From positions 64,001 to 128,000 of the IMG/VR virus record IMGVR_UViG_3300033145_000529: a stretch of DNA of 64,000 nt. One strand, 5' to 3'. The translations under genes were made by a program, and so were the position numbers. Below the pieces are notes generated by a model that made no database searches, was not told the DNA's origin, and saw only the letters and a program-made list of their open reading frames with translations. Of this stretch, positions 23,629 to 62,279 are shown in pieces. Every line of letters begins with the position of its first letter. Position 1 is the first letter of the stretch. The DNA comes from a virus.

Positions 23629-24033
23629 ATGAGCAGTAAACATAAAAGTCATAGCTTAGATAAGGAATGTCTTTGTCCAAAGTGTCATTTACGGTTCGTT
23701 TGTTTTACTGAGGAACGAGTGTTCTCTGACCCCATATATCAGGGGTTGTTTGAAGCATTGATGGCTCAAGGGAAGTCTAGGGAAAAAGCTCTTGACGAAG
23801 TGACGGCTGAAATTAAGTTTAGGATGAATAACCCTATCGAAATAGGTGGTGGAAGTAATGGTACAATGTACCCACTTCCAACTACAATACCAGCTATCAC
23901 ACCAAATATTCAACCAGATGTACAACCTTGGATAGTGATTTCCGAGTATTCTGATACTGTTAATGACAAAGGAGAAGTGCAGGTGAATTATACTATGTAT
24001 GATGGGAAGGAAGTTAGCTGGTTATGCAAATAA
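23629..24033 (+). CDS. hypothetical protein with CxxCxxRFxCxT motif
   Basis: CPKCHLRFVCFT near N terminus. Confidence 0.65.
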   Translation: MSSKHKSHSLDKECLCPKCHLRFVCFTEERVFSDPIYQGLFEALMAQGKSREKALDEVTAEIKFRMNNPIEIGGGSNGTMYPLPTTIPAITPNIQPDVQPWIVISEYSDTVNDKGEVQVNYTMYDGKEVSWLCK

Positions 24034-26012
24034 ACTTAGACAATTATGAACTCATTGAGAAAAATGCAGAAATACCTTTAATCTTGGTAGAGGCGGAACA
24101 GTGCAAGTATATAGGTCTTGATACTGAGAATAAGGGCGGACTTGACATTCTTGCACCAGGAGTTAAGCTACTTCTTGTTCAGCTTGAAATAAAGGGCAAA
24201 GCATATATTATTGATGCCCGAAAGGTTGATATATCTCTTTTAAGTGACTTATTAATGAACAGGAAGCGATGGATTAAAATTGTCCAAAACGCTAACTATG
24301 ATTACAAAATTTTGAAAGTGCTACGTGGAATTCCTCTTCGTGGAGTCTTTGACACTAAGATAGCGGAGTCATTATTGCATATGGGAATAGGAAAAGGGGG
24401 AAATTCTCTTGATAATCTTTCACTCAAGTACCTAGACTACAAGATGGATAAGGATATTGTGTTAACATTTGTTAACCATCCTGATGATGCACCGTTTACA
24501 GAGGAACAACTTCGCTATGCGGCTGGCGATGTTCTTGTTCTCCCAGGAATACGTAAACGACAACAAATGTATTTGAATCAGTATAGGCTTAATCCAATTG
24601 CTGAATTGGAGTTTGCTTTAGTTGAATCAGTGGCGGAAATGGAACTTGCTGGTATTACTCTAGATTCTGAGATGTGGAATAAAAGCTTAGATAACACTAA
24701 GAAGAAGTTATTTAAAATAAGTACTGAATTGAGGCAGGTTTTACCAGATCCACCAGTACCACCTCCCAAACTAGTGAGATTGAAGAAGGATGGTACTCCA
24801 TATGCCAATACACCCAAATCAAAACCACCACCAGTTCTTAATCTCGATAGTTGGCAACAGCTTGTACAGGCTTTTAATGAAATTGGTGTAGACTTACGGG
24901 AGGTCAATAAGAAGACGAGGAAAGGTCCAACTAATAGTGGAACTATAAAAGTCGCTCAAAGTGTCTACAATAGTGATTCTGTGAAAGCTACCACGCTTAA
25001 AAACCTAATAAAATATAGGGGACTTAATCAGGTCAAGAAAACTTTTGGTGATAATCTTATTAATTGTATTAGAGATGATGGAAGAATCCATGCGAGATTT
25101 CATCAGAATGGAACTGAAAGTGGGCGGTTTAGTAGCTCTGCCCCCAACCTTCAAAATATTCAGAAGAAGGGCAAGGAAGGAGAGATATTAAGGTCTTGTT
25201 TTGTTCCAGCACCAGGTTATAAATTTGTCATTGCTGATTATAGTCAAATTGAATTAAGAATAGTTGCGGAGTTGAGTGGTGACCCTGTAATGTTGGCTAT
25301 GCTTCAAGACCCGAAAGGGGACATTCATCGGGCTACTGCATCTCAAATGTACAAAGTTTCATATGACAGCGTTTCTACGGTATTGAGGAGAGCGGCTAAA
25401 ACCTTGAATTTTGGTATTATTTATGGGATGATGATAAAGACACTTGCAGAGCGTCTTAATTGTTCTTCCACTGAGGCAGACGGTCACCTACGAAGGTATA
25501 ATGAGACATACTCTACTTTGATGGAATGGTTAAAAGATGAGGGTGATGCTGCATATAAGAGAGGTTGGACTAGAACAATTGGTGGTAGAATCAGGTGGTT
25601 TCCCACATTAAATGAGAAAGATTTTGAGACGAAGCGAGAATTTAATAATATGGTTGACTTCTTCAAGCGAGTAGGAAGGAATCACCCTGTTCAGGGGACA
25701 TCTGCTGATATGACCAAGACGTCTATTGTTCTGCTTTATTTTCCTTTGTTACACTTTACATCTAAATTAGTCAATACTATTCATGATGAACTTTGCATTG
25801 AGACACCAATTAAGCATACTATAGAGGTGGCGCATATAGTAAAAGAGAGAATGATTCATGCAGGAGAGCAGTTCTTACACAAAGTTCCTGTCCTAGTAGA
25901 TGTTAAAATAAGAGATTCTTGGTGGGTAAGTGACGATGTACCTGATGATGAAAGTGGGCAACAATTGTGGTTAATGCCACAAAGGTATGGATTGGATGGT
26001 AACGGGCAGTAA
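24024..26012 (+). CDS. polA: DNA polymerase family A with 3'-5' exonuclease
   Basis: LDTE exo I, YAAGDV, SGRFSS..PNLQNI, ADYSQIELR, AKTLNFGIIYG, IHDE. Confidence 0.96.
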   Translation: MQINLDNYELIEKNAEIPLILVEAEQCKYIGLDTENKGGLDILAPGVKLLLVQLEIKGKAYIIDARKVDISLLSDLLMNRKRWIKIVQNANYDYKILKVLRGIPLRGVFDTKIAESLLHMGIGKGGNSLDNLSLKYLDYKMDKDIVLTFVNHPDDAPFTEEQLRYAAGDVLVLPGIRKRQQMYLNQYRLNPIAELEFALVESVAEMELAGITLDSEMWNKSLDNTKKKLFKISTELRQVLPDPPVPPPKLVRLKKDGTPYANTPKSKPPPVLNLDSWQQLVQAFNEIGVDLREVNKKTRKGPTNSGTIKVAQSVYNSDSVKATTLKNLIKYRGLNQVKKTFGDNLINCIRDDGRIHARFHQNGTESGRFSSSAPNLQNIQKKGKEGEILRSCFVPAPGYKFVIADYSQIELRIVAELSGDPVMLAMLQDPKGDIHRATASQMYKVSYDSVSTVLRRAAKTLNFGIIYGMMIKTLAERLNCSSTEADGHLRRYNETYSTLMEWLKDEGDAAYKRGWTRTIGGRIRWFPTLNEKDFETKREFNNMVDFFKRVGRNHPVQGTSADMTKTSIVLLYFPLLHFTSKLVNTIHDELCIETPIKHTIEVAHIVKERMIHAGEQFLHKVPVLVDVKIRDSWWVSDDVPDDESGQQLWLMPQRYGLDGNGQ

Positions 26013-26190
26013 AGTTGATGACGCTATTACTTGTATTGTAGCGATATACCGCACTTGTCGGCAAGCTGTCATCTACAAATATACTAGAAAGATACCCGCA
26101 TAATGAAGAATTGCCAGGATTAGAGGAGGAGTGCGAAAAATGTGAATTTAGTTTTTTGCGTGCTTCTTCTAGGAGTAGAAGTCATGTATC

Positions 26191-26784
26191 ATGGGGGTAA
26201 GTAAGGAGAGGTTAATGAAAGAACATACAAGTCAACATGAGTGGGATTTACATTTTATGAGAGAGACTAAGCTTTGGATGGGGAGGAGCAAATGTCTTTC
26301 CAGACAAATCGGTGCTGTTTTAGTTCAAGGTAAGCATATTATAGCAAGTGGGTACAATGGACCTCCAATGGGTGTTCCCCATTGTGACCATAGAAATAAT
26401 CAAGGATACTACACTAATTTTGTTGAGGAGAAGTGTCCACGACAAAGAATGGGGTTTAAGAGTGGTGAGGGTATGGAGCATTGTGTTGCTGTTCATGCAG
26501 AGATAAACCCCATTATGCAGGCGGCAAAAATGGGCATCTCAACTAGAGGTGCAACGCTCTATTGCTATTGTGGTACACCTTGCATTAACTGTACAAAAGA
26601 GATTATACAAGCTGGAATAACGAGAATAGTTTGTCTTGGCAAAAGTGGAACTTCTCATGCACAAATAAAAGATGGGGATAACCCCACAAAGAGAGGATAC
26701 AACTTTCCATTGTCGGAGAAGATACTTGAACTGGTTGGAGTTAAATTAGATGTAATTACCGAAGAAGAGGTAAATAGTGGCTAA
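26191..26784 (+). CDS. dCMP deaminase
   Basis: SKCLSRQIGAV, GYNG, HAEIN, PCINC. Confidence 0.93.
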   Translation: MGVSKERLMKEHTSQHEWDLHFMRETKLWMGRSKCLSRQIGAVLVQGKHIIASGYNGPPMGVPHCDHRNNQGYYTNFVEEKCPRQRMGFKSGEGMEHCVAVHAEINPIMQAAKMGISTRGATLYCYCGTPCINCTKEIIQAGITRIVCLGKSGTSHAQIKDGDNPTKRGYNFPLSEKILELVGVKLDVITEEEVNSG

Positions 26785-27787
26785 GGATATTAAGGAACTT
26801 GTTGACCTAATCTTAAAGAAAACAGACAAAATATTTGTTCCTGAAGGTAAAACGACTTGGAGATTGCCTATGGGCATCCCATCACTAGACCGTATTCTTG
26901 GTGGTGGATTTCCTGGTGGAGCAATTGTTCAGATTTATGGTCCAGAAGAAGCAGGAAAGACAACACTTGCTTATCATGTTGCGGGACAAGCGGTTAAGTT
27001 GGGGTATCCCACATTATACATTGGTTTGGAAGGGTATAGTGAGCAATATGCCAAAGCATGCGGAGTTGATGTAGATAGTGATAAATTTCACCCTGTTTCG
27101 GGGGACTTTGCTGAAGAGGTATTCAATATGTGTATTGAGGGATTACGGAACTATGACTTAAAGGTAGTAGTTATGGATTCCATCACTGCGGCTATACCTA
27201 AAGCTAATATTGAAAAAAAGCAACCTACTGATGCTATGGACAAAGGTCCAAGTCTTGGGGCAAAAGCCCGAACTGTTGGTTATTTTGTGGAACAACTACA
27301 ACACCCCATTAGAAGAAAACACGGTCTTTTTGTCACAGTAAATCAGCTTAGGTCTAATATTGGTAAATTTACTTCGGGATTAAAGCCTTCTGGTGGAATG
27401 GCTTTACAATACTACACGGATGTTAAGATTTCAATGTGGGGTAGTAAGGATAGGTCTACAGGAATCATTGAGAGTAAAGTGACCGTCAACAAAGGTAAAG
27501 AATGGGATGTCGTTCCTTGGGGTGCTACTACTTTGTATATAGAACACGGTAAAGGGATTAGTGTTAACCATGATATTATTACTATCTGTGAGAAGGTAGG
27601 TATAATTAAGAAGAGCGGTTCTTGGTATAATTACGATGATGGGAAGCAGGAGTATAAGTTCCAAGGGATAGCCAAATTTGCAGATGAGTTAGAAAATAAC
27701 TTAGCACTTCGAGAGGAACTTTATAATAAGGCTACCCAGTCACAAGTAGAGGTCGAAGTGACTGAGGAGAATGAAGATGATAAATAA
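26777..27787 (+). CDS. recA: RecA/UvsX recombinase
   Basis: LGGGFP.G, YGPEEAGKTT, VMDSITA, NQLR, SGGMAL. Confidence 0.93.
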   Translation: MAKDIKELVDLILKKTDKIFVPEGKTTWRLPMGIPSLDRILGGGFPGGAIVQIYGPEEAGKTTLAYHVAGQAVKLGYPTLYIGLEGYSEQYAKACGVDVDSDKFHPVSGDFAEEVFNMCIEGLRNYDLKVVVMDSITAAIPKANIEKKQPTDAMDKGPSLGAKARTVGYFVEQLQHPIRRKHGLFVTVNQLRSNIGKFTSGLKPSGGMALQYYTDVKISMWGSKDRSTGIIESKVTVNKGKEWDVVPWGATTLYIEHGKGISVNHDIITICEKVGIIKKSGSWYNYDDGKQEYKFQGIAKFADELENNLALREELYNKATQSQVEVEVTEENEDDK

Positions 27788-27956
27788 TCTTAGTGACCTT
27801 TGGGTTAAAGCTTGTGAAGAACTTCGGTGTTTATCTAAAGATAGACCTTATATACGTAGTGAAGCCACGTTATGGGATGCTTTTAAATTTATGTATATGC
27901 GTAGAGTTAATGGGGGCAAAACAGATGGTCGCAAAGTTTATGGTGAGGTAAAATAA
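27771..27956 (+). CDS. hypothetical protein
   Basis: coupled small ORF. Confidence 0.45.
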   Translation: MKMINNLSDLWVKACEELRCLSKDRPYIRSEATLWDAFKFMYMRRVNGGKTDGRKVYGEVK

Positions 27957-28321
27957 TGTTACCAGAAAGACCGAACATTGAAGAGTTTATAAAGCTTGTT
28001 GACGACCTTGCAGATATACAAGATGAATTAAACAAGCTGGAATATCAATACAGTAAGAAAGTTGCTACTAATGTTCGTAGTGCTATGGAACGTGGTGCAA
28101 AAACTAGGGAGCTTGATTGTGTAAAAGTTCTCGGTAATACCGAGGAAGAGCAAAAAGTTATGGATGGTTTGATGAATTCAATTCATGACAGGAAAAAAGC
28201 GGTAAGGATGTTATGGGGGAAAATAGAGGCATGGAAAGCGAAGAAGGAGCTATATAGGACTGACAGTTATCATCAGATTACTGGTAAACCTGATAAGAGT
28301 TTCTTTTCAGAAGAGGGGTAA
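27956..28321 (+). CDS. hypothetical coiled-coil protein (possible recombination mediator)
   Basis: helical, downstream of recA. Confidence 0.5.
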   Translation: MLPERPNIEEFIKLVDDLADIQDELNKLEYQYSKKVATNVRSAMERGAKTRELDCVKVLGNTEEEQKVMDGLMNSIHDRKKAVRMLWGKIEAWKAKKELYRTDSYHQITGKPDKSFFSEEG

Positions 28322-28328
28322 GACATTT

Positions 28329-29072
28329 ATGGAAATAAGTTATACTATGCTCCATTCTTTAATGGAATGTGAATACAGTTACTACTTGAGATATGTTGAG
28401 AGAGTTCCTATTAGGGAGTCGTCAGCTTCAGTTTATGGGACTGCTGTTCACAGAGCTATACATACAGGATATGAGAATAATCTAGCTAGAGATGACTGGG
28501 CAAAGGTATTTAAACATGAATGGGTAGTTTTAACATCAAGCAAAGATATAGCTTTTTATAATGAGAACGAATATCTGAAGAAGTTCAAGGATGGGCAACA
28601 ACTTCTTTTAGATTATTATGATACATTTGTAAAAAAAGAAAAAAAACCGCCCCAAATGTTAGAATACTTTTTTGGGAGAGATAAAGCTGTAAAGCTTGGA
28701 AAGCATGTTATCATAGGAGTCCTCGACCAAATAGATGCCAGGAGTAGAATTATTGATTATAAAACTGGTATTAAACCAACACAAGCGAAGTTAGACCTTG
28801 ATTTACAGTTTACAATTTACAGCTATGCTTATAGACAACTGTTTGACCGAGAAGAAAGTGGTCTTGTTTTGAGGCATCTTGGTACTATGAAAGATATGAA
28901 AACAAAACGTACTGAAGAAGATTTTGAGCTTGTCAAGGAAGAAGTTGATAAGGTTGAGAGAAGATTGAAAGGTAAAATATTTGTTAGGAATTTAGGTAGG
29001 GGGTGTGCTAATTGTTATTTTATTGAACACTGTCTAGGCAAGGAGAGGAAAATTGGGAGAAGTTGGGCATAA
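28329..29072 (+). CDS. PD-(D/E)XK exonuclease (RecB/Cas4-like)
   Basis: ISY...C, GTAVH, GVLDQID, IIDYKTG, QFTIY, CANC..IEHC. Confidence 0.88.
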   Translation: MEISYTMLHSLMECEYSYYLRYVERVPIRESSASVYGTAVHRAIHTGYENNLARDDWAKVFKHEWVVLTSSKDIAFYNENEYLKKFKDGQQLLLDYYDTFVKKEKKPPQMLEYFFGRDKAVKLGKHVIIGVLDQIDARSRIIDYKTGIKPTQAKLDLDLQFTIYSYAYRQLFDREESGLVLRHLGTMKDMKTKRTEEDFELVKEEVDKVERRLKGKIFVRNLGRGCANCYFIEHCLGKERKIGRSWA

Positions 29073-29076
29073 GATT

Positions 29077-29511
29077 ATGTCAACCCTTGTTAAAGAGTTA
29101 TTACGGAATTACTATAATATAGATGATAGCTCTAAACTTGACTTAGATATGGCAATAAAAGCTCTTATTGATAGTGGCAAGTTTAGTGAAGATGAGCGTA
29201 TCATCCTTAAGCTTACTATCGAGCAAGTTCATCATAGTGGTATTTCTAGAGTTGTGGGGCGGCAAAAGAGTGCTGTTAATGCTAAGATTAATAAGATTGC
29301 TAAGAAAATTGCTGATTATTTAGGTGCTGAATACCAAGATGAAAAGATTTTAAAAGAAGTTGAATTTAGATTAGGTCGAGCACTTACCCCTGACGAAGAA
29401 AAATTTTGTTGGAAAATTATTCGGGCTGGTCGTCCAATAAAGGGGATAAACATTTTTAACTTTAAGGCTAGGAAGTATGCAAAGAGAGGAAAGGATAAAG
29501 CAAAGGGATAG
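29077..29511 (+). CDS. HTH protein (sigma region-4-like)
   Basis: ERIIL...ISRVVG..KSAVN..INKI. Confidence 0.5.
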   Translation: MSTLVKELLRNYYNIDDSSKLDLDMAIKALIDSGKFSEDERIILKLTIEQVHHSGISRVVGRQKSAVNAKINKIAKKIADYLGAEYQDEKILKEVEFRLGRALTPDEEKFCWKIIRAGRPIKGINIFNFKARKYAKRGKDKAKG

Positions 29512-30292
29512 GTGGGTTTGTAAAAGGTGCGGGAAGAAGTTTGAAGGTTTGGTTCTCTGTAAGTTTGACCTTACTGCTGACACTGATAATTGCTATATTA
29601 CCTTCTGTACGGAATGTTTAAAGTGGGCATTTGATAATCTAGAGGAAACAAAACAACTATGCACAAAACTTTTACGACGTAATAAGATTGTGTTGGTTGG
29701 AGATTGTCATGGCAATTTCGAGAAATTAGACGCTGTTCTGACTGCTGAAGAACCATTTGACTTTTTCATTTCGGTAGGTGATGTTGGTTCTCTAAATGAC
29801 GTAACTCCACAAAACATTTCACTAATTGAGAAGTGGCAAAATGGGTACTTTGTTCGTGGTAATCACGATGATGTGGAATTCTTCAAACCCCTTGAGATTG
29901 TGCAAACTATAAATGGGGTACAAGTAGCAGCATTAAATGGGATGCTAAAGTCACGAACGTTCCTCAAGGAACAATTAAATAATATTTCATTTCGTGAAGT
30001 TCTTTACTTATCACACTTGAACGATATTGACATATTGGTTACGCATCAACCACCAACAGGTCTATTTGGAGGAGTAGGTGAAGCTGTTCTTGAAGAGATG
30101 TTAAATTATCTCGTCCCCAAGATTTATATTTGTGGGCATATTCATAGATACAAACTGAGATTTCATCTTAAAACCTTCGTAATATCACTACCAATGATTC
30201 ATAGAGGTCATGCAGTTGCGTATTTTCAAGGTAGAGATTTGAGAAATTTAGAGGTAGTGTTGAAGAAGGGAAAGAAGTTTATTAGAGTATAA
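29477..30292 (+). CDS. metallophosphoesterase with N-terminal Zn finger
   Basis: GDCHG, VGD, RGNHD, THQPP, CGHIH. Confidence 0.85.
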   Translation: MQREERIKQRDRWVCKRCGKKFEGLVLCKFDLTADTDNCYITFCTECLKWAFDNLEETKQLCTKLLRRNKIVLVGDCHGNFEKLDAVLTAEEPFDFFISVGDVGSLNDVTPQNISLIEKWQNGYFVRGNHDDVEFFKPLEIVQTINGVQVAALNGMLKSRTFLKEQLNNISFREVLYLSHLNDIDILVTHQPPTGLFGGVGEAVLEEMLNYLVPKIYICGHIHRYKLRFHLKTFVISLPMIHRGHAVAYFQGRDLRNLEVVLKKGKKFIRV

Positions 30293-30306
30293 GGAACAAT
30301 TATATA

Positions 30307-30560
30307 ATGATAATTAGAACAGCATTTACATTCGGGGAAAACAACACTAGCAAAGATGGTATCGGCTAGACTAAACCTTAAAGGATATATTCCAGCACTG
30401 ATTCATGAGTATGCTAGGGACTATCACAAAGTGTCATGTAAGACCTAATACCGTGGCGGAGCAGTTCTTAGTGTTCTACAGACAATTGGAGCGGGAAGAT
30501 GAGATGTGCTCTAGTAGCACACAAATTATGTGTACGGATTGTCCAGTCAGGCATTGTAGT
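30307..30560 (+). pseudogene. frameshifted NadR-like P-loop ATPase (AAA_28) remnant
   Basis: SGKTTLAK...EYARDY...EQ...Q..RED...TD.P spread over broken frames. Confidence 0.55.
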
Positions 30561-30610
30561 TAAAGCTTGACACCGAGGGAAACAGAGATTGTTGTTAAAG
30601 GAGAGGAATA

Positions 30611-30808
30611 ATGCCAGTAGATAAACTTGAAAAACTAAGAAAGACAGACATAGACCTTAGTAGCATAACATTAAATGTATTCATGCATAGAGTTATTTGT
30701 TGTTCTGAGTGCGGGGAAACTCAATTTACCTTACGTAGAGTGAGGGATAAAGAAGGCAAGAAGATTAAACCTTCGAAATTCATTTGTGTGGAGTGCTATA
30801 AAGGGTGA
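30611..30808 (+). CDS. small Zn-finger protein
   Basis: CSEC...CVEC; strong SD. Confidence 0.6.
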   Translation: MPVDKLEKLRKTDIDLSSITLNVFMHRVICCSECGETQFTLRRVRDKEGKKIKPSKFICVECYKG

Positions 30809-31041
30809 AGAGATTATTTATAGAGTGCTCCAGTTGTCATTATATAATCTTACCGAATCCAGAGAAGATTCCTGTACTTGTTGAAGTTTTGGACAGTAAT
30901 AAACTTTACAAGTGTAAGAACTGCGATACTGTGATGGATTTTTATTCTATCCATATTTGTTATAGAGACCTCACTGACGAATGTAACGATTGCAGATTCC
31001 GTTTCTTATGTTACACAAACGATGCCACAAAAAAGGCTTGA
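30805..31041 (+). CDS. Zn-ribbon protein with C-terminal CxxCxxRFxCYT motif
   Basis: CNDCRFRFLCYT. Confidence 0.65.
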   Translation: MKRLFIECSSCHYIILPNPEKIPVLVEVLDSNKLYKCKNCDTVMDFYSIHICYRDLTDECNDCRFRFLCYTNDATKKA

Positions 31042-31066
31042 CTTATTGATTGGCTTATGATACAAT
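31035..31066 (+). promoter_or_regulatory. sigma70-type promoter
   Basis: GGC-TTGACT-N17-TACAAT with TG. Confidence 0.75.
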
Positions 31067-31083
31067 AGTAGGAGAAGTGGTAA

Positions 31084-31341
31084 ATGTTTAATAATATTAA
31101 GAATGCATATAGGGTTTTGACTAATAAATTATATGAACAATACGAACATCATGGAAGTGTTGTTTGGGTTAGAAAGGACTTAAAAGGTAAGCATAGAGAT
31201 TATTGTCTTTGTCATAGTTGCGAGAGGTTTAAACCCGCAGAAAAAAATTGTGTGACTGCTAATCTAGTGTTTGCTGTATGTAAAGAATGTGATATGGTTC
31301 TACCAGTTTGGGAATGCCCTTTCTTTGCTAAAAAGGCTTGA
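31084..31341 (+). CDS. Cys-rich hypothetical protein
   Basis: SD, follows promoter. Confidence 0.65.
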   Translation: MFNNIKNAYRVLTNKLYEQYEHHGSVVWVRKDLKGKHRDYCLCHSCERFKPAEKNCVTANLVFAVCKECDMVLPVWECPFFAKKA

Positions 31342-31366
31342 CAACTAGTCTTTTATGTGGTATAAT
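31335..31366 (+). promoter_or_regulatory. sigma70-type promoter
   Basis: GGC-TTGACA-N17-TATAAT with TG. Confidence 0.85.
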
Positions 31367-31377
31367 ATAAGTAGAGA

Positions 31378-31827
31378 ATGAAGAAATTAGTAAAATGTAT
31401 AGATTGTGGTGTGGAGAGGTTGGTAAGAATTAGGAATGGTAAACCTGTTCATGAAAGATGTTGTAAATGTTCAAACGAATTGAAAGCGATGTTTGGTGAG
31501 AGTAACCCTAATTGGAGGGGTGGACGTATTGAACACGATGGTTATACTATGATTAGGGTTTATCCTGAAGATAGGTTTTATTGTATGGTAAAATCAGAAT
31601 CATTTCCCTATGTTATGGAGCATCGTTTATTACTGGCTGAGTCTATTGGTAGACCATTGAGACCAGATGAGAAGGTTCACCATGATAATGAGCTACGGAA
31701 GGATAATAGAGTGGCTAACTTTGAATTGACAGATAATGGTGGTCATGCTGTCATTCATAATTTGGGGCATCATCCCAAAGCAAATCGGATTCCACCAAAT
31801 AATTTTGGTAAGAGGTACAATAAGTGA
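31378..31827 (+). CDS. HNH homing endonuclease
   Basis: NPNWRGG, YVMEHRL, VHHDNELRKDNRVANFEL. Confidence 0.85.
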   Translation: MKKLVKCIDCGVERLVRIRNGKPVHERCCKCSNELKAMFGESNPNWRGGRIEHDGYTMIRVYPEDRFYCMVKSESFPYVMEHRLLLAESIGRPLRPDEKVHHDNELRKDNRVANFELTDNGGHAVIHNLGHHPKANRIPPNNFGKRYNK

Positions 31828-32102
31828 AAATTAGTCAGGCATTACAAGCACAAAAAGCTCTCAATGCGGAGATTTCACACTTGAGAGGGTTAGAGTCCCA
31901 AAAAGCATGGTCGTATAGGTCATTAGAGACACCTAACGCTGAAATGAAATCAAATTTTGATTTTGACAAGAACCATGAGACCATCAAGAAACTGTCCCGT
32001 TTGCACACAAAGCTTGGACAGGCAATTTCGAGAACGAATCTTGAGTTGGACTGTATTGGTCTTGATGTAAAGGACCTTGTGGAACTGGGGGAGTGGATCT
32101 AA
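31824..32102 (+). CDS. DIP1984/septicolysin-like coiled-coil protein (tentative)
   Basis: MKISQAL..QK.L N terminus and L..AI..TN C terminus. Confidence 0.5.
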   Translation: MKISQALQAQKALNAEISHLRGLESQKAWSYRSLETPNAEMKSNFDFDKNHETIKKLSRLHTKLGQAISRTNLELDCIGLDVKDLVELGEWI

Positions 32103-32118
32103 AGTCTACTTCTCTACC

Positions 32119-32272
32119 AGCCTACTGATGGGGGAATTGTAGATTTTTGCACTGTTACAGTTATCTACTGTGTAGCACATCGGTAAAGAGGCGAAGCAGA
32201 AGGGTTTCTCGTGTATGCGTGTAATTGTGTATTCGTGTTTAGCGAGAATCTCTCTTCTTTCCACAGTAGGCT
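32119..32272 (+). ncRNA. putative structured ncRNA with 8-nt repeat loop
   Basis: closing stem AGCCTACTG/CAGTAGGCT; inner stem GGTTTCTCG/CGAGAATCT enclosing 4x YGTGTWWN. Confidence 0.6.
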
Positions 32273-32276
32273 CAAT

Positions 32277-32352: not shown

Positions 32353-32356
32353 CGAA

Positions 32357-50260: not shown

Positions 50261-50262
50261 AT

Positions 50263-53458: not shown

Positions 53459-53641
53459 AACCTGAGCTAATAAGTAGGTATTGTCTAACTAGCCCGTGTG
53501 GACTTGCCCTTAACTCAAAGAGTTAACTCCACAAGGCAGAGCGGGGAAAATCTAACCAGAGTTATTGGATTAGGTGGTACAGCCACCCTGCTGTTAATCT
53601 AGACTCTGTGGAAGGTAGACAGTCTGCCGAAAGCTCAGGTT
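53459..53641 (+). ncRNA. putative ~183-nt multi-stem ncRNA
   Basis: AACCTGAGCT/AGCTCAGGTT terminal stem; TTGTCTA/TAGACAG, TTAACTC/GAGTTAA and CAGAGT/ACTCTG inner stems. Confidence 0.65.
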
Positions 53642-53645
53642 ATTT

Positions 53646-53718
53646 GCCGAGATAGCTCTAATGGTAGAGCGATAGGTTGAAGCCCTATGCGTTGTTGGTT
53701 CGAATCCGACTCTCGGCA
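53646..53718 (+). tRNA. tRNA-Phe(GAA)
   Basis: loop TTGAAGC. Confidence 0.92.
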
Positions 53719-53799
53719 CATAAATCTAAGACGGAGGTCTAAGATGAACGCTAACGAAAGAAAAGATACCCAATTAGGCATATCACACGGTACAGATGG

Positions 53800-53873
53800 G
53801 GGGGCTTAGTTCATTGGGAGAACAACTCCCTTGCAAGGAGTAAAGACGAGTTCGACTCTCGTAGCCTCCACCA
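53800..53873 (+). tRNA. tRNA-Ala(TGC)
   Basis: loop CTTGCAA, G3:U70, CCA. Confidence 0.92.
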
Positions 53874-53880
53874 ATAAGTT

Positions 53881-54498
53881 ATGAAGATAGTTTTAATAGC
53901 AGACACGCATAACTGCACTCCTGAACTTCCTGATGGAGACATCTTAATTCATGCTGGTGATGGCACATCAAGAGGAACTAGAGAAGAAGCTGAACAGTTT
54001 GATGAGTGGCTTGGCACTTTAAAATTTAAACAAATTCTATTCACACCAGGTAACCATGACTTCTGTTTTGAGAAGAATAGAGATATATTAAAGAATGCTA
54101 CAACACTGATAAACGAAGGTATTGTAATTGATGGTGTTTCATTTTGGGCATCACCATATACATTAACCAAGTTCAATTGGGCATTTATGAAACCTGAGAA
54201 TGAATTAGCAGAGATTTGGCGTTATATTCCAGATAAGGTTGATGTTCTTATCACACACGGTCCACCTAGAGGAATATTAGACAGAACGATTAGTGGGGAA
54301 AACGCTGGTTCACAATCCTTGCTTGACCGCTCAAGGATAGTTAAACCTAAAGTGCATGTTTTTGGACACATACACGAAACATACGGGTCACAGTATAATC
54401 GTGGGGTACATTATATCAATGTTTCTGTCCTCAATGAGTATTACCAGAACGTGAATAAACCAGTTGTGGTTGACGTTGGTGTGTGGCTCAGTCAATGA
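53881..54498 (+). CDS. metallophosphoesterase (239FB/MPPED-like)
   Basis: ADTH, IHAGD, PGNHD, THGPP, FGHIHE. Confidence 0.9.
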   Translation: MKIVLIADTHNCTPELPDGDILIHAGDGTSRGTREEAEQFDEWLGTLKFKQILFTPGNHDFCFEKNRDILKNATTLINEGIVIDGVSFWASPYTLTKFNWAFMKPENELAEIWRYIPDKVDVLITHGPPRGILDRTISGENAGSQSLLDRSRIVKPKVHVFGHIHETYGSQYNRGVHYINVSVLNEYYQNVNKPVVVDVGVWLSQ

Positions 54499-54644
54499 CG
54501 GAGGTCTAAAAATGAGCACAAATAAAGATAAGTTTTAGGGATGCCTTTTGGCACTGCTTCAAATACACTAAGGAAGAACTTTTTATTTCATGTATTAAAC
54601 AAAGGTTGCTTCAAAAAGCTCGGCAAGAGGATAGAATAAATAAA

Positions 54645-54722
54645 CAGTCTATAGCTCAATAAGGTAGAGCACCACGTTTGGGGTGTGGGGGGTTGGTGGT
54701 TCAATTCCACCTAGACTGACCA
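54645..54722 (+). tRNA. tRNA-Pro(TGG)
   Basis: loop TTTGGGG, CCA. Confidence 0.9.
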
Positions 54723-54825
54723 TGCACCACGTTGCTTGGAATTTGGTGTTGGGTATTGAAACTATGAGTTTCAACCAAACGTACAAAGACTTAGAGGAAG
54801 CGATACCAAGCCATTTGCTTCCCTA

Positions 54826-54901
54826 CAGGGTGTACGTCAGTGGACAGACTACCTAGCCTGGACCTAGGAGGACGGCGGTCCGAATCCGCCCACCCTGACC
54901 A
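54826..54901 (+). tRNA. tRNA-Pro(TGG)-like, non-canonical anticodon loop
   Basis: loop CCTGGAC (C33, A37); C1:G72, A73; CCA. Confidence 0.7.
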
Positions 54902-54903
54902 TC

Positions 54904-55233
54904 GTGGGGTATAAAAATAAAGAAAAACAGAAAAAAGCACAACACGAGTCATATCTAAGACTTAAAGATATTTACCGTGAAAACAACCGTAGAAGGCGTA
55001 AAGAGCTTAAAGAGTGGTTTGCTGAAATCACAAAGGACGATGTTTGTTTATTTTGTGGAGAGTCTTGTAAGATTTGTTTAGACTATCATCACAGAAATCC
55101 AGAAGAAAAGGTAGCCAACGTAAGCACATTACTTGCAAATATGAGAAGTAGAAAAATGATACTGGCTGAACTAGCAAAGTGTGATTGTATGTGTTCTAAT
55201 TGTCATAGAAAGCATGAAGCTGGATTGATATAA
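54904..55233 (+). CDS. HNH endonuclease
   Basis: CLFCGE...LDYHH.NP.EK...KCDCMCSNCHRK.H/E pattern. Confidence 0.8.
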   Translation: MGYKNKEKQKKAQHESYLRLKDIYRENNRRRRKELKEWFAEITKDDVCLFCGESCKICLDYHHRNPEEKVANVSTLLANMRSRKMILAELAKCDCMCSNCHRKHEAGLI

Positions 55234-55239
55234 TGGAAA

Positions 55240-55532
55240 AGTATGAAAGACGAGAACAAAAATTAGAGGCTAAGAAAACTAGAGTACCTAAACACGGTAG
55301 AAACATAGGAGTAGTTTATAGAAATGCCTTGGAGAAAAGAACTAGCAAAGAAGATAGATAGCTTCCTAAAACTAGAACATGATTGGGATAGCCGTTGATT
55401 TGATACTTGACCACATTGATGGCAACTCATTTGATAATTTACCTAATAACTTAAGATGTGTTTGTTCTAATTGTGATGCTAATTTACCGACCTATAAATC
55501 AAAGAATAGAGGAAATGGCAGGGGATATAGAC
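55240..55532 (+). pseudogene. HNH endonuclease remnant
   Basis: LILDHIDGN..DN...NLRCVC.NC....TYK.KNRGNGR with broken N terminus. Confidence 0.65.
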
Positions 55533-55608
55533 GCCAGCAAAGCACATTTGGAAGTGCAGGCGATTTGTAATCGTCAGGAAGGTTTGGGTTCGAATCCCCC
55601 TGCTGGCT
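55533..55608 (+). tRNA. tRNA-Thr(TGT)
   Basis: loop TTTGTAA; imperfect T stem. Confidence 0.78.
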
Positions 55609-55617
55609 CATTGAGTC

Positions 55618-55689
55618 GCCACTGAAGCTCAAAGGTTGAGCAACTACTTCGTAAGTAGGAGATTGTGAGTTCGAATCTCACCTGTGGCT
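55618..55689 (+). tRNA. tRNA-Thr(CGT)
   Basis: loop TTCGTAA. Confidence 0.88.
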
Positions 55690-55698
55690 CATAGTATT

Positions 55699-55790: not shown

Positions 55791-56057
55791 ATGGAATTAA
55801 AAGTTTGCGAAACTAAAAAACGTTCTCTAGTAAAGGCAATATCGTTTAGGATTATTGAAGTTGCTATTGATACGCTTATACTTTCTTTCTTTATTCCCGT
55901 ACCAATAGCCTTTGTATTGGCAATGGCTGTTGAGGGAATTTGTTTCGCTTTACATTTTGCGTTTGAGAGAGTCTGGAATAAAATAGATTATGGGAGACAC
56001 ATATACAAACGCAAAAATAAGCAAACTAAATGGATGTTATATAAGCAGACTGAGTGA
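55791..56057 (+). CDS. DUF2061-family membrane protein
   Basis: ETKKRSLVKAISFRII...ERVWNKI.YG. Confidence 0.8.
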   Translation: MELKVCETKKRSLVKAISFRIIEVAIDTLILSFFIPVPIAFVLAMAVEGICFALHFAFERVWNKIDYGRHIYKRKNKQTKWMLYKQTE

Positions 56058-56064
56058 ACGGCTT

Positions 56065-56310
56065 ATGGGTCTGCTTATGATATTAGAAATAGAATTATCG
56101 TGGGGCAAGAGATTGGCATTTAATACATGGGGCGTAGAGACTGCTAGTTTTATTTGTGAAGGTGAAAGAAAGTGTAGTGATTGTGAGTTTCGTTTTGCTT
56201 GCTATACCACCAACACCGTAATTAAGATTAAACGTGAGTTCACCGATTATCATAGTGCGATAAAATATAGAAACAACCTTAAAAAAAGGTTTAAGTGCCG
56301 AGTAGTCTAG
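56065..56310 (+). CDS. small protein with CxxCxxRFxCYT motif
   Basis: CSDCEFRFACYT. Confidence 0.6.
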   Translation: MGLLMILEIELSWGKRLAFNTWGVETASFICEGERKCSDCEFRFACYTTNTVIKIKREFTDYHSAIKYRNNLKKRFKCRVV

Positions 56311-57324: not shown

Positions 57325-57678
57325 TTAAAAAACATTCTCCTCTATTACGCAATATTTAGGAAGTTTAGTTTTTCTATTCTTTAAACTAAGTACCTCGTTT
57401 ATCTCCTTATAAATTTTATCAACTTGTGACATTCTTCGGGGTTTGTAGTTTTCCTCACAAGCGGCAGAATCTTTGTGTACAAGCATCCCTGTAACCTCAC
57501 AAAAACCTACAGGACGTTGAATTGTTCTGTATCCCTGTGCTTTCATGTCAAATTTGGCGTTCTGACACTTACCACAAGTGTTCTGAATTTTCCAATTTAC
57601 TTTCACCCGTTTTGGTCTCTCGTTATTTGCTAGGGTAAAACATATAAAACGATACTCACACTCTTCACACCTAGGCAT
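57325..57678 (-). CDS. Cys-rich protein with N-terminal CxxCxxRFxCFT motif
   Basis: MPRCEECEYRFICFT. Confidence 0.7.
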   Translation of the reverse strand: MPRCEECEYRFICFTLANNERPKRVKVNWKIQNTCGKCQNAKFDMKAQGYRTIQRPVGFCEVTGMLVHKDSAACEENYKPRRMSQVDKIYKEINEVLSLKNRKTKLPKYCVIEENVF

Positions 57679-58035: not shown

Positions 58036-58270
58036 TTAACTAGGATTATAGCATCTACGCTTCATGTTTACCCATGTGGTCATAAGAGGTTTTCTGAGAT
58101 GGTAAGCAATTTTCTTATTTGCCAAATACTCTTTGTGTTGCTCCCTATAACACTGACACCACAAACTTACTTTGTCTTTATTAAGAGCATTCCATATCTT
58201 GCTATAACAAGATTTACACAATCCATTTGCGTGGTGTTCTCTTTGCTTATTGCATTTTGTACATGTCATT
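58036..58270 (-). pseudogene. truncated HNH-type endonuclease
   Basis: CTKC...HANGLCKSCY...TW.NMKRRCYNP then stop. Confidence 0.55.
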
Positions 58271-59644
58271 AATTTCATTTTTATGCTTAATATACTCTCT
58301 AGCTTTGGCAAACGCTGATTCTCTATCATCTTTATTTAATTTTCCATCTATAACCAAGCTAGTTAAATAATTCTTTATATCACCAATAGCTTTACTAGGT
58401 TTAAGGTTAAACGCTTCCATAATCTCCACACCACTAATAGGTGATGTTAAAGTTTCTGGTTGTTCCTTCATACACTTATTTACTAATCTTGTTAAGATAG
58501 TTATAAACTTGTAACGTGGGTTCTTTGAAGAACGAATATCACACCTCACTAAATCTAATAGCAGATAAATATTATCCTCCCCGACCTTCCTCACCAACCG
58601 CATGATGATTCGCTTCCTAATTCTACCATTTCGAATTTCCCTTTGCAAAACAATAGGAGTCATATGATACTTTATCAAGTGGCATACGCTGTTTACGATT
58701 TCGTTATTGTAACGTAATCTACGTAGAATCTTTCTAGTCTTTCTAGCACCCACATTGTGGTGTCCATAGAAGTGAACACCGTCATCATCTTCTATCTTTG
58801 TCTCTGGTTTTCCAATATCGTGGAAGATACAAGCAAGACGGAAGATTAGATTTCTATTGCCAGCATCTACTTTACTACCTTTGTGTAGAACTAACAATGA
58901 ATGTTCGTAAGCATCTTTCGTGTGATTTTTTCCCTGTGGTATATACCTTAGATCCATAAACTCAGGTGCTACATAATACATCAATCCAGTCTGACATAGT
59001 TTTCTGACACCAAAAGAAGCTCTATATGAAAGAATAATTTTGGTAAACTCGTCACGTATTCTTTCCTTAGAGATAATTTCCAGTCGTTCTGGATGCTCAA
59101 TTCTTATACCTAGAGAGAATCCAAATTGGCAAGCAAACCTAATGGCTCTTAACATTCTTAGCGGGTCGGATGAAAATCTCTCGTTGAAATCTCCCACGCA
59201 TCTAATAACTTTATTTTTAATATCTTCTTGCCCATTAAACGGGTCTATAATGGTGTCTACACCATGGTTAATAGACCTTATCAAATCAATAGCCATAGCA
59301 TTAATATTAAAGTCCCGCCGACTCAAATCATCATATATGTTATCACTAAATGTCACTGTTGGATTACGAGAATCAGAAGTGTATTTTTCCCCTCTGTATG
59401 TAGTTACCTCAATGGTTATGCTTGCTGTATTGAGACCAATTGTTCCAAAAGCTTCTCCAATAGAATAAATGCTACCAAACTCATCCAATAGTTCTTTTAT
59501 CTTATCTGGATGAATATTAGTTGCCATATCAATATCGTGTGATTCTCTATTAAGAATAATATCACGAACAGTACCACCCACTAGATACAACTCGGCATTA
59601 TTTTTAGCAAACTTGGTTGCTATTCTTTTTACAATATCTTCCAC
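58247..59644 (-). CDS. cca: CCA-adding tRNA nucleotidyltransferase with HD domain
   Basis: YLVGG.VRD, DIDMAT, DLSRRDFNINAMA, DPLRMLRA.RF, FHDIGKP. Confidence 0.93.
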   Translation of the reverse strand: MEDIVKRIATKFAKNNAELYLVGGTVRDIILNRESHDIDMATNIHPDKIKELLDEFGSIYSIGEAFGTIGLNTASITIEVTTYRGEKYTSDSRNPTVTFSDNIYDDLSRRDFNINAMAIDLIRSINHGVDTIIDPFNGQEDIKNKVIRCVGDFNERFSSDPLRMLRAIRFACQFGFSLGIRIEHPERLEIISKERIRDEFTKIILSYRASFGVRKLCQTGLMYYVAPEFMDLRYIPQGKNHTKDAYEHSLLVLHKGSKVDAGNRNLIFRLACIFHDIGKPETKIEDDDGVHFYGHHNVGARKTRKILRRLRYNNEIVNSVCHLIKYHMTPIVLQREIRNGRIRKRIIMRLVRKVGEDNIYLLLDLVRCDIRSSKNPRYKFITILTRLVNKCMKEQPETLTSPISGVEIMEAFNLKPSKAIGDIKNYLTSLVIDGKLNKDDRESAFAKAREYIKHKNEINDMYKMQ

Positions 59645-61173: not shown

Positions 61174-61422
61174 TTACTTCTCAAATTTTGTCTTTCTCTC
61201 TCGTTTAACTTTTATTTCAGTATAGCATCGGAAGCGAAGTTTACAGTGCTCACATTTTTCCCTATCTTTCATAGCGGCAGTTCGTTCTCTACACTCTTGG
61301 ATAAAATCAATGAGTGATAAGTCCTCAGCGTTCATTTGCGGATTACTAGGTAGCCTCCTCCAAGCTGTTGATACTGGTATAGCTTGTCGTAGTGCTTTAA
61401 TCATATCCTCATTTTCGCACAT
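61174..61422 (-). CDS. small protein with CxxCxxRFxCYT motif
   Basis: CEHCKLRFRCYT. Confidence 0.6.
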   Translation of the reverse strand: MCENEDMIKALRQAIPVSTAWRRLPSNPQMNAEDLSLIDFIQECRERTAAMKDREKCEHCKLRFRCYTEIKVKRERKTKFEK

Positions 61423-61534
61423 TGTTGTACTCTCTCAAGGGCAAGTCGGTGATGCTATAGGTCGTCATCTGAAAAAATAGAGCGTGGTTTAGTCCAGCAC
61501 CAACTATTACCACATCATAGTGATTCATTCAAAA

Positions 61535-61939
61535 TTACCTTCTTGTCGTATAACACTTAAATCGTGCATCACACTTCTCACAGTGTTCTGTAGGGAACTT
61601 TCCATAGCTCCAACAAACCTTAAATGGATTACCACACGTTGAGCAGGTGGGATACTTTCTAACTTCACCCATGTTGTATATAGAAACATCACAAGTAGGA
61701 CAATACCATACTATCTTCTTCTGCTCACCAATGTTTCCTTTTATACCAATGAAGTCAAGCCCAAAAGGAGTATTGTTCCACCACAATCCGCAACCCGCAC
61801 ACTTCACATTAACGATTAGTCCACCGCTTAGACGACCCTCGTAGAACTTTTTACTACCGCAGTTCAGACAAGCTAGTTCCTCTGCTGGCATCTTTTCCGT
61901 GTCAATTATTCTACGTTTTCTTTTTAAGAAGTCAAACAT
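61535..61939 (-). CDS. double Zn-ribbon protein with C-terminal CxxCxxRFxCYT motif
   Basis: CEKCDARFKCYT. Confidence 0.65.
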   Translation of the reverse strand: MFDFLKRKRRIIDTEKMPAEELACLNCGSKKFYEGRLSGGLIVNVKCAGCGLWWNNTPFGLDFIGIKGNIGEQKKIVWYCPTCDVSIYNMGEVRKYPTCSTCGNPFKVCWSYGKFPTEHCEKCDARFKCYTTRR

Positions 61940-62279
61940 TTATCGCTTCGTCATCAAATTTCTTTGTCATTGCTTTGCACATCTGATAAGTTAAATTCGT
62001 AAAAGCCTTTGATGCCTCATCCACTGTAATCATTTGTGCTTTCATACATTGCTGTAGCTTCTGTAGTCCTATATGGGTATCTTCAAAGACACTCATTGAT
62101 TGCGGTCTACCAGCAGTCCAGCATTGAAATCTTTGGTCACATTTGCTACAATGCCTGTGGTCAACTTCTCTTTCTTTTATTCTGCACTGTTCAAACCTCC
62201 ATTCGGGTGTGGTTTTATCTATATAGTAGTCACTGTCTTTCTTAATCATATCAAGTTGTAACTTAGGTAACCTTAACAC
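61932..62279 (-). CDS. protein with CxxCxxRFxCWT motif
   Basis: CSKCDQRFQCWT. Confidence 0.65.
   Translation of the reverse strand: MLRLPKLQLDMIKKDSDYYIDKTTPEWRFEQCRIKEREVDHRHCSKCDQRFQCWTAGRPQSMSVFEDTHIGLQKLQQCMKAQMITVDEASKAFTNLTYQMCKAMTKKFDDEAINV

Follow-up and report, generated by a model that had tools for sequence, protein, structure and literature searches.

The question raised by this stretch of phage DNA (the window, 64,000 nucleotides) is why twelve small proteins with no apparent relationship should share the peptide C-x2-C-x2-R-[FY]-x-C-x-T. The initial annotation took it for a portable three-cysteine metal tag, its fourth ligand possibly supplied in trans, through which many effectors dock onto one hub or hetero-oligomerize. 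All twelve peptides are present exactly as quoted there, although the positions given for them are those of the ORF starts, and the motifs themselves start at 23674, 30982, 42436, 43603, 47154, 48019, 51271 and 56173 on the plus strand and at 57669, 61254, 61582 and 62150 on the minus strand. The decayed copy that had been reported was also confirmed. Our preferred reading, to which we give a probability of about 0.7, is that the motif forms the central part of a self-contained four-cysteine mini-module, not described before and predicted to bind metal, in one clade of phages. The carriers and the two degenerate sequences in the window are as follows.

23629–24033, plus strand: 134-aa carrier immediately 5′ of DNA polymerase I; motif CPKCHLRFVCFT at 23674–23709, fourth Cys two residues upstream of it (C-x-C-x2-C-x5-C).
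26132–26167, plus strand: decayed copy CEKCEFSFLRAS in a 51-codon stop-to-stop frame without an ATG, between the DNA polymerase and the next gene.
30805–31041, plus strand: 78-aa carrier; motif CNDCRFRFLCYT at 30982–31017, 7 residues before the C-terminus, closest upstream Cys 7 residues ahead of it.
42346–42480, plus strand: minimal carrier of 44 aa, with GAGG about 7 nt 5′ of its ATG; motif CDRCPSRFVCWT at 42436–42471, 2 residues before the C-terminus, upstream Cys at C-x2.
43297–43725, plus strand: carrier flanked by tRNA-Ser and tRNA-Lys, its true start probably the Met at 43369; motif CKKCNFRFTCAT at 43603–43638, additional CxxC pairs of zinc-ribbon type.
46986–47222, plus strand: carrier of 78 aa (62 aa from 47034), its orthologue in relative G002 also motif-bearing; motif CDKCLVRFYCYT at 47154–47189, 10 residues before the C-terminus.
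47953–48342, plus strand: 129-aa carrier starting at a Met after tRNA-Leu; motif CDGCQYRFECFT at 48019–48054, no upstream Cys, His at −6 and −8, Cys downstream.
51196–51570, plus strand: 124-aa carrier; motif CDNCPMRYVCWT at 51271–51306, fourth Cys at C-x3.
51878–51913, plus strand: degenerate variant CSKCNSIWVCWN without R, F and T, within a 77-aa ORF (51863–52096) between tRNA-Leu and tRNA-Trp.
55990–56310, plus strand: carrier of 106 aa (81 aa from 56065); motif CSDCEFRFACYT at 56173–56208, fourth Cys at C-x5.
57325–57678, minus strand: 117-aa carrier, G002 orthologues also motif-bearing; motif CEECEYRFICFT at 57634–57669, beginning at residue 4 and leaving no room for an upstream Cys, CxxC downstream.
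61174–61422, minus strand: 82-aa carrier; motif CEHCKLRFRCYT at 61219–61254, fourth Cys at C-x12.
61535–61939, minus strand: 134-aa carrier with multiple CxxC pairs; motif CEKCDARFKCYT at 61547–61582, 3 residues before the C-terminus.
61932–62279, minus strand: 115-aa carrier; motif CSKCDQRFQCWT at 62115–62150, Cys at C-x11, His at −1 and −3.

The motif is more frequent than chance: strict matches numbered 0 in 50 mononucleotide shuffles of the window, and the bare C-x2-C-x5-C pattern occurs 24 times in the window against 3.4 in the shuffles (n = 50). Matches to the DNA pattern number 19–49 per genome in five related genomes, where a reversed control pattern gave 0. The twelve copies are real but the count is too narrow, as the window holds one third of the copies in the entire 148-kb phage genome (about 33–35); relatives have 65–68, 49 and 50, and carriers make up 12–20% of the crude gene calls per genome. 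The motif-bearing proteins, well over a hundred of them, are small and otherwise unrelated, and the module is restricted to one clade, an isolated group of uncultured phages of 130–150 kb. When 1.84 billion proteins were searched exhaustively with a profile, only 223 cluster representatives came back, all small, and a DNA pattern scan of cellular genomes gave nothing above chance. As annotated, the codons differ among copies: the Arg is AGG, AGA, CGT, CGG or CGA, and as both Arg codon families are used, selection acts on the protein; third positions of the conserved motif codons show 50% identity. The motif is under purifying selection. An alignment of 36 orthologues of the 23629 carrier, the best-sampled family, leaves C14, C16, C19, C25, F23 and T27 invariant, and of the 58 carriers for which an orthologue of about 50% identity exists, 54 have a motif-bearing one, which is almost never so for non-carriers.

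The idea that a fourth ligand has to come from another chain did not survive. Among 197 copies pooled from four genomes (33, 65, 49 and 50), 196 have a further Cys in the same protein, whereas 16–24% of small non-carrier ORFs (crude ORF picks, like all the gene calls that served as controls) have no Cys at all. In these genomes the number of extra cysteines has its mode at 1 and a second bump at 5–6. Exactly one is found in 57 proteins; it lies upstream in 51 of the 57, usually 1–13 residues ahead of the motif and sometimes 40–75, being more than 40 residues away in 11 (about a fifth) and close in most others. A Cys lies within 15 residues upstream in 71% of copies, with spacer peaks at x3 and x4, and the first spacer is mostly x1, x3, x4 or x9. 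Independent metagenomic carriers behave in the same way (extra Cys in 138 of 139, mode 1), and carriers with no fourth Cys nearby are few, for example 57325 and 47953 in the window. As the fourth Cys is nearly always in the same protein, the module is a C-xn-C-x2-C-x5-C site in cis, with the consensus Cys, 1–13 (sometimes 40–75) residues, C-[DNE]-x-C-x-x-R-F-x-C-[FYW]-T-x-[RK]. An L7/L12-like domain in relative G003 is bracketed as by a staple, with one Cys before it and a three-Cys tail after it, and in the small proteins of the arrays in relative G001 the Cys is in the first strand and the C-terminus is the motif plus one residue.

The R, F, aromatic and T positions are conserved far more strictly than plain metal ligation requires, and this could equally well reflect a shared partner. 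In that case the module would be a docking or oligomerization tag, a common handle to one phage or host hub or a means of pairing through shared metal, with the invariant R, F, aromatic and T forming the binding face. These non-ligand residues are indeed kept across the 147 unrelated families into which 196 carriers fall by masked BLAST, the motif is often an exposed C-terminal tail (in 41% of copies the end is no more than 10 residues away) and an aromatic patch beside the cluster of Wbl proteins is reported to bind the primary sigma factor (PMC13013590). However, the C-terminal bias is largely due to G001 alone (46 of 65 copies, against 9 of 33, 11 of 49 and 15 of 50, or 18–30%, in the three remaining genomes), the analysis brought up no candidate hub and, with the fourth ligand in cis in nearly all copies, a ligand in trans is unnecessary. 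None of the results points to docking or hetero-oligomerization, and we regard such a tag as unlikely.

That the motif belongs to no named family was borne out, as nothing in Pfam, PHROGs, PDB sequences or folds explains it. Against solved metal sites the best PDB profile match had E = 1, Foldseek matches all had E > 0.1 and VIA Z scores were 3.8 or below; weak Pfam echoes among the carriers came from Whib (E = 0.035) and DDE_Tnp_1_6 (E = 0.003). The cysteine spacing is nevertheless, as had been pointed out, that of known [4Fe-4S] sites, namely the AddB/Cas4 ‘iron staple’, WhiB and the EndoIII cluster loop. In Cas4/AddB one N-terminal and three C-terminal cysteines clamp the chain around a single metal centre (PMC3466216). 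This may be an FeS cluster or Zn, the latter in DUF3799 (PMC3466216), and so likeness to the staple cannot tell which metal the module would hold. Carriers partly resemble the AddB/Cas4/Dna2-type staple (Pfam PDDEXK_1, Cas_Cas4), which has C-x2-C-x5-C near the C-terminus plus an upstream Cys: the triad is present in every carrier, but the upstream Cys is usually 1–13 residues away and distant in only about a fifth of four-Cys carriers. None of the Pfam families listed for 150 carriers (25 of 26; E ≤ 0.01) is PDDEXK_1, the RecB-type PD-(D/E)XK nuclease domain. A gene with the canonical staple pattern lies within the window itself.

28329–29072, plus strand: PDDEXK_1 (Cas4/AddB-type) nuclease, a non-carrier (Pfam E = 2.7e-25, above cut-off).

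This nuclease gene, the only one of its kind in the clade, has C14 and a C-terminal CANCYFIEHC, the canonical staple form; its Cys spacing is identical to that of the module but the R-F and aromatic-T signature is missing. Outside the clade, the R-F-x-C-W core recurs only in a very large family of proteins of about 285 aa with at least 3,738 relatives, which was found on viral contigs (L015, L046, L065) and is thus apparently phage-encoded. It keeps C-x-F-C-x-[YF]-R-F-x-C-W at a C-terminal Cys triad which, together with one N-terminal Cys, D..D-x-K and Q-x3-Y, is invariant. Its sequence makes it a probable RecB-type (RecB/Cas4) nuclease, the PD-(D/E)XK assignment coming from these motifs and a Pfam E of only 0.033, with profile comparisons not significant. 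Unlike the module it is a single orthologous family, is not portable and does not keep Thr at position 12.

Resemblance to Wbl proteins (PF02467) lies in small size, occurrence in phages and the C-xn-C-x2-C-x5-C arrangement, the spacing of the last three cysteines being invariant in the module and an upstream Cys nearly always present. The Wbl consensus C-x2-C-P-V-R-x2-C also places Arg at the seventh motif position. However, Wbl is one family, confined to Actinobacteria and their phages, while the module is grafted onto many proteins in a clade of 37–40% G+C. The four cysteines of WhiB1 are C9, C37, C40 and C46 (PMC6282962). The G[V/I]WGG turn that follows the last Cys in Wbl proteins was found in 0 of 197 carriers, even with a relaxed pattern; the sole Whib match among 20 carriers scanned protein by protein scored 15.1 bits against a cut-off of 23.6 (E = 0.035), and Whib is absent from the families listed for 150 carriers (Pfam, E ≤ 0.01), so that membership was rejected. 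The endonuclease III/MutY cluster loop, C-x6-C-x2-C-x5-C, is compact, with four Cys in about 17 residues close to a C-terminus, and shares this and its last two spacings with the module, but carriers have no HhH-GPD domain, their first spacer is mostly x1, x3, x4 or x9 rather than x6, and no match to Pfam EndIII_4Fe-2S was seen among them. The SPASM/twitch pattern of radical SAM proteins (C-x2-C-x5-C-x3-C) was also rejected, as the module has R, K or N three residues after the third Cys, and no radical-SAM domain is among the Pfam families listed for 150 carriers. The weak DDE_Tnp_1_6 profile (PF13751, IS1182/IS5) covers the motif together with the upstream Cys and the residues that follow in the 51196 carrier (E = 0.0033, residues 17–53) and the 47953 carrier (E = 0.03); scores of 18.2 and 15.0 bits fall below the cut-off of 25.1 and cover only profile positions 3–60 of 125, and carriers lack a DDE domain, so that membership was rejected.

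Arginine and aromatic residues displayed on a small metal knuckle are the retroviral pattern. In the manner of the retroviral CCHC knuckle or the EndoIII loop, the module could likewise contact DNA or RNA through its Arg and two aromatics, anchoring proteins of replication and repair, and RNA-related ones, on nucleic acid. Carriers do include a uracil-DNA glycosylase (UDG), a DNA polymerase neighbour, a SWIM protein and an L7/L12-like protein, and many sit among the 27 tRNA genes, but the median pI is 8.0 for carriers and other small ORFs alike, so that carriers show no excess of basic character, the module has a median net charge of 0, and Pfam recognized no nucleic-acid-related domain in most of 150 carriers. 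Several carriers have further CxxC pairs outside the motif, and Pfam zinc-ribbon matches were few and weak (1–2 members per family, E 0.0003–0.007). A classical zinc ribbon or knuckle has two C-x2-C pairs (or C-x2-C plus H/C-x2-4-C), whereas the module has one C-x2-C and two single cysteines; the fold searches gave no zinc-finger match, although such a site could still escape them. A nucleic-acid-binding role for the module as a whole appears improbable.

It is less probable still that the carriers are one old, hyper-diverged paralogue family, derived from a single small Cys protein, in which only the metal site survives and nothing is portable. In G001, genes of similar size do stand in tandem arrays of about 20, every one with the motif at its end, and some are detectable paralogues; many copies of the motif are also followed by a weak strand-like pattern. 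Against this, the motif is portable, its position being N-terminal, internal or C-terminal (from residue 4 to the last residues), as was claimed, and it is fused to unrelated domains: a family-4 UDG and an L7/L12-like domain (L7/L12 CTD), which suggest different folds around it, an intein-split SWIM protein and zinc ribbons. With the motif masked, all-against-all blastp among the genome's 35 carriers found nothing below E = 0.3, and hhalign probabilities for 410 family pairs were 33% or less, upholding the view that the flanks are unrelated. The word ‘effectors’ was too narrow, since some carriers, such as the family-4 UDG, are fusions to ordinary enzymes. A site cross-linked at Cys and Thr by a radical-SAM or lanthipeptide-type enzyme is barely credible: both residues are invariant and the genome encodes radical-SAM enzymes, but ordinary enzymes are among the carriers, and the radical-SAM enzyme at genome position 49194 lies in a sugar cluster and has no counterpart in 4 of 5 relatives with 19–49 motif copies, a failure to co-occur on which a RiPP-type precursor with a radical-SAM maturase was rejected.

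On the preferred reading of a self-contained module, four thiolates of one chain would bind a single metal centre, which could be a [4Fe-4S] cluster or a Zn ion. As the phages encode no Fe-S assembly genes, any cluster would be host-supplied. With the fourth Cys close by, the module would form a compact knuckle made up of a strand with Cys at its end, a loop with the C-x2-C pair and a short helix beginning at R-F-x-C. AlphaFold2 models are consistent with this arrangement: that of the family at genome position 32452 (pLDDT 73) has a strand, a Cys-ended strand, the C-x2-C loop, a short helix over R-F-x-C-F-T and then a strand and a helix, and that of the 23629 carrier (pLDDT 61, about 55 at the motif) begins a helix at RF, confidence at the motif being only about 55–72. 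With the fourth Cys far upstream, the three-Cys tail may instead fasten the C-terminus to the rest of the chain, as the staple of AddB/Cas4 does. A hydrophobic and hydrogen-bonded shell of the module's own would be provided by the invariant R, F, aromatic and T, and we propose that the module could therefore fold in any context. Its spread across the non-structural genes of these phages seems to have come about through fusion and shuffling, or through very old divergence. If so, it would be a cheap cytoplasmic stand-in for a disulfide, stabilizing small, fast-evolving proteins, and an add-on to some enzymes.

The 148,197-bp IMG/VR record of which the window spans bases 64001-128000 is rated complete, and the window is 38% G+C with 27 tRNA genes. 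The initial annotation had reported twelve peptides of the form C-x2-C-x2-R-[FY]-x-C-[YWFA]-T here and all twelve were found, the coordinates it listed being ORF starts (in several cases the first Met following a tRNA gene); the decayed copy that it placed at 26132 was also confirmed, in a frame without an ATG, and a 13th, degenerate copy (CSKCNSIWVCWN) lies at window 51878. Zero strict matches were obtained in shuffled sequence. Its Arg is encoded by five codons, with both codon families used, and the third positions of the conserved codons are just 50% identical, which, as had been proposed, indicates conservation at the protein level and rules out a DNA repeat as the explanation of the copies. 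Many lie in a tRNA-rich region:

Window 42759-55690: tRNA island with 26 of the 27 tRNA genes and small ORFs wedged between them.
Window 58247-59644, minus strand: CCA-adding enzyme or poly(A) polymerase with an HD domain, adjoining the tRNA island.

Five ORFs of the island (43297, 46986, 47953, 51196 and 55990) carry the strict module and one (51863) a degenerate variant; several of the island's ORF calls overlap tRNA ends, and the true starts of these are probably internal Mets.

The motif is larger in extent than was first reported. About 23 further copies are present in this genome outside the window, and the copies as a whole are found among small genes, in the replication region, in the tRNA island and on the two arms, and avoid the structural and sugar genes at approximately 33-87 kb. 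These genes are accompanied by a radical-SAM enzyme whose C-terminus weakly resembles SPASM (L106, another stretch of this genome, 9194-10336; genome 49194-50336). A scan of IMG/VR with a degenerate DNA pattern showed the motif to cluster in a few contigs, 55-153 kb long, with 49, 39, 43, 19 and 38 matches in the related phage contigs G001, G002, G003, G004 and G005, respectively, and zero matches to a reversed control pattern in the same five. At protein level the copies number 65-68 in G001, 49 in G002 and 50 in G003, and carriers make up 12-20% of genes, a percentage that rests on crude gene calls. These genomes have 58-102 genes in common at 45-59% identity. With a DNA polymerase profile the clade members are 52-81% identical, and the next match comes only at 27%; as GenBank phages have DNA polymerase matches of at most 30% identity and no relative of the 23629 protein (the 134-aa carrier upstream of DNA polymerase I), the clade is isolated and uncultured, and all members of it seen are motif-rich. 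When 1.84 billion cluster representatives were searched exhaustively with a profile of the motif, 223 passed E <= 0.001; among the matches listed, all 150 are 48-224 aa long and 141 of the 142 examined have the strict motif. Two metagenomic carriers, P0053 (148 aa) and P0054 (104 aa), have two complete modules each, those of P0053 being an internal duplication with a Cys 11 residues upstream of each. Scanning 185,579 prokaryote genomes for the pattern turned up 117 matches, no prophage and no clue to the host, and as nearly all of these matches are in short or stop-containing frames they are at chance level.

The flanks had been described as looking unrelated and the carriers as unrelated small proteins, and both descriptions are supported. 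Once the motif was masked, the 35 carriers that this genome encodes had no blastp matches among themselves, and 410 pairs of its families compared by hhalign reached at most 33% probability, over 11 columns. Masked in the same way, 110 of 151 carriers from three genomes were singletons at an E of 0.001 and 196 carriers from four genomes fell into 147 families at an E of 1e-5. Of 58 carriers with an orthologue elsewhere in the clade, 54 have one that is itself a carrier, while the orthologues of non-carriers almost never are; the 54 of 58 argue that the module is stably inherited within each family under purifying selection and is truly common to different families. Almost none of 150 carriers were recognised by Pfam, and searches of it with 10, 10 and 150 carriers found no family for the motif itself; PHROGs gave no match to 10 window carriers, nor NCBIfam to the 23629 carrier. 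The few recognisable carriers are mutually unrelated and include, besides several zinc-ribbon proteins, the first three of the following (L108 is a further stretch of this genome, L112 a stretch of G003 and L085 a stretch of G001):

L108:6711-7442 (genome 134711-135442), minus strand: family-4 uracil-DNA glycosylase (UDG) carrier, NCBIfam E about 1e-27.
L108:18192-19625 (genome 146192-147625), minus strand, outside the window: 477-aa SWIM-type zinc-finger carrier with an intein.
L112:18438-18941 (G003 78435-78941), minus strand: phage-encoded carrier resembling the L7/L12 C-terminal domain.
L085:4974-15333 (G001 24974-35333): array of some 20 nearly tandem genes encoding 74-102 aa, plus one of 263 aa.

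The glycosylase has four Cys inside the UDG domain, at positions that fit what we take to be the family-4 cluster ligands, and an added C-x10-C-x2-C-x5-C at its very end (CKNCKQRFYCFR, then stop). In the SWIM carrier the intein, which contains a LAGLIDADG homing endonuclease (Pfam E = 3.7e-8), separates the two halves of the SWIM motif, C-x-C and C-x-H, and the module is in the C-extein. The L7/L12-like domain was detected in two carriers with Pfam E down to 1e-12. About 18 genes of the G001 array end in C-x2-C-x2-R-F-x-C-W-T plus one residue and many of the proteins begin with a K-x-G-D-x-V strand, typical of small beta-barrels, paralogy being detectable for some members only.

The initial annotation had envisaged a portable metal module with a fourth ligand possibly supplied in trans. 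The portable module holds up, with metal binding predicted from the Cys spacing; a ligand in trans does not, as a further Cys is present in the same protein for 196 of 197 copies. The sole carrier without one has a His six residues before its first Cys (seven in its metagenomic orthologue). Among small non-carrier ORFs, 16-24% contain no Cys. A Cys lies within 15 residues upstream of the motif in 71% of the 197 copies (82% if His is counted), with spacer lengths that peak at three and four residues. The number of extra Cys per carrier has its mode at one (57 proteins) and a second bump at five to six, as expected if each carrier has one Cys4 site and some have a Cys4 ribbon in addition. In 51 of the 57 four-Cys carriers the fourth Cys is upstream, at a distance of 2-13 residues in 35, 18-25 in five and 42-75 in 11. 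Among metagenomic carriers 138 of 139 have an extra Cys, again with a mode of one, although the profile that retrieved them has a slight bias towards an upstream Cys. The 23629 protein belongs to a family of 36 members in which C14, C16, C19, C25, F23 and T27 are invariant. The module thus reads C-xn-C-x2-C-x5-C within a single chain, and a ligand from another chain would be unnecessary.

AF2 models, in both of which confidence is modest over the motif itself, suggest how such a site might be arranged. In the model for the family of the genome-32452 protein, a 78-aa carrier (15 sequences, pLDDT 73), a strand is followed by another that runs up to the first Cys, then by a loop with C-x2-C, a short helix over R-F-x-C-F-T, a third strand and a helix; in that for the 23629 family (pLDDT 61) a helix likewise begins at R-F. 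Neither model had a match in the PDB by Foldseek (E > 0.1) or in a wide VIA-align search (Z at most 3.8, with a weak BTB-like topology), and the ESM Atlas yielded no usable match. Where the fourth Cys is distant, as in the L7/L12-like protein of G003 and in those G001 array members whose first strand contains a Cys, the lone Cys precedes the domain and the triad follows it, a predicted staple topology.

The cluster loop of EndoIII and MutY has the same Cys spacing as the module, and small metal-clasped domains as such are already known. The spacing is also that of the AddB/Cas4 iron staple (PMC3466216) and of WhiB1 (C9, C37, C40 and C46; PMC6282962), and sub-threshold Pfam matches to Whib (E = 0.035) and to the transposase Cys motif DDE_Tnp_1_6 (E = 0.003) fall exactly on the module. 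The G[V/I]WGG of Wbl proteins, however, was not found in carriers, and among the Pfam families listed for 150 of them there was no nuclease, HhH, DDE or radical-SAM domain. Two further proteins bear on the comparison:

Window 28329-29072: the clade's own PDDEXK_1 nuclease, not a carrier, with a canonical triad CANCYFIEHC lacking R-F.
L015:3790-4641, L046:223-1074 and L065:1423-2286 (other viral contigs): family of about 285 aa with at least 3,738 relatives and no Pfam domain.

Outside the clade the R-F-x-C-W core was seen only in this family, in a conserved C-terminal triad C-x-F-C-x-[YF]-R-F-x-C-W. Its invariant N-terminal Cys, D..D-x-K and Q-x3-Y resemble a RecB/Cas4-type nuclease; a PD-(D/E)XK assignment received no significant support from searches of the PDB (phmmer and profile) or from hhalign with the clade nuclease. 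With 141 motif segments as a profile the sole match among all PDB sequences was CQGCPHRYEC of USP9X (E = 1), presumably part of a zinc-binding finger. Literature searches found no description of the motif, which is undescribed in the libraries and literature searched. The initial annotation had not recognised it as a named family, and none of the family membership tests placed it in one; the module appears to work like known Cys4 metal sites yet is a member of none of those families.

As to the metal, the odds between [4Fe-4S] and Zn are, judged from sequence, roughly even. The Cys spacing and the Pfam echoes favour [4Fe-4S], but the same staple binds Zn in DUF3799 (PMC3466216), the USP9X look-alike points towards Zn as well, and Zn would be easier for a phage needing 35-68 loaded proteins per infection. 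Searches for Fe-S_biosyn, NifU and NifU_N found no Fe-S assembly genes in the clade phages. The genome encodes an RNR large subunit with an ATP cone; as no clade member has NrdB, this RNR is probably class II and tells nothing about oxygen.

The simplest reading is that the module would be a self-sufficient metal clasp. Such a clasp would allow very small or newly extended cytoplasmic proteins to fold, and may have spread through a set of early and accessory genes with rapid turnover, either by end-shuffling or because tiny genes consisting of the module alone, like the 44-aa ORF at window 42346-42480, became fused to others. That R, F, the aromatic and T are so strictly conserved would then be due to their forming the shell of the clasp itself; it is also the chief argument for a shared partner, which is conceivable. 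We think it improbable that the module is a proteome-wide functional tag, either an autonomous [4Fe-4S] knuckle whose face of invariant R, F, aromatic and T residues would dock a fifth of the phage's early proteins onto a single partner from host or phage, or a global switch in which all carriers would depend on host iron-sulfur or redox state and the infection programme would have a single control. A general nucleic-acid-binding role is weakened by the finding that carriers are not unusually basic. Modification of the module by the radical-SAM enzyme is unlikely, as that enzyme is not conserved in the clade.

A self-sufficient clasp of this kind would be a clean natural case of a portable mini-domain spreading inside compact genomes, and it is unusual for one 12-residue signature to have stayed intact across some 150 protein families that are unrelated to one another and account for 12-20% of the genes in a virus lineage. 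For protein engineering it may offer a ready-made minimal tag of about 15-35 residues, predicted to bind metal, and the 44-aa carrier makes the question of which metal directly testable at the bench. The module is also a marker for a deep, uncultured phage clade without a GenBank relative and, if the [4Fe-4S] assignment is true, the iron-sulfur assembly of the host would be under exceptional demand from these phages, tying infection to iron and redox state.
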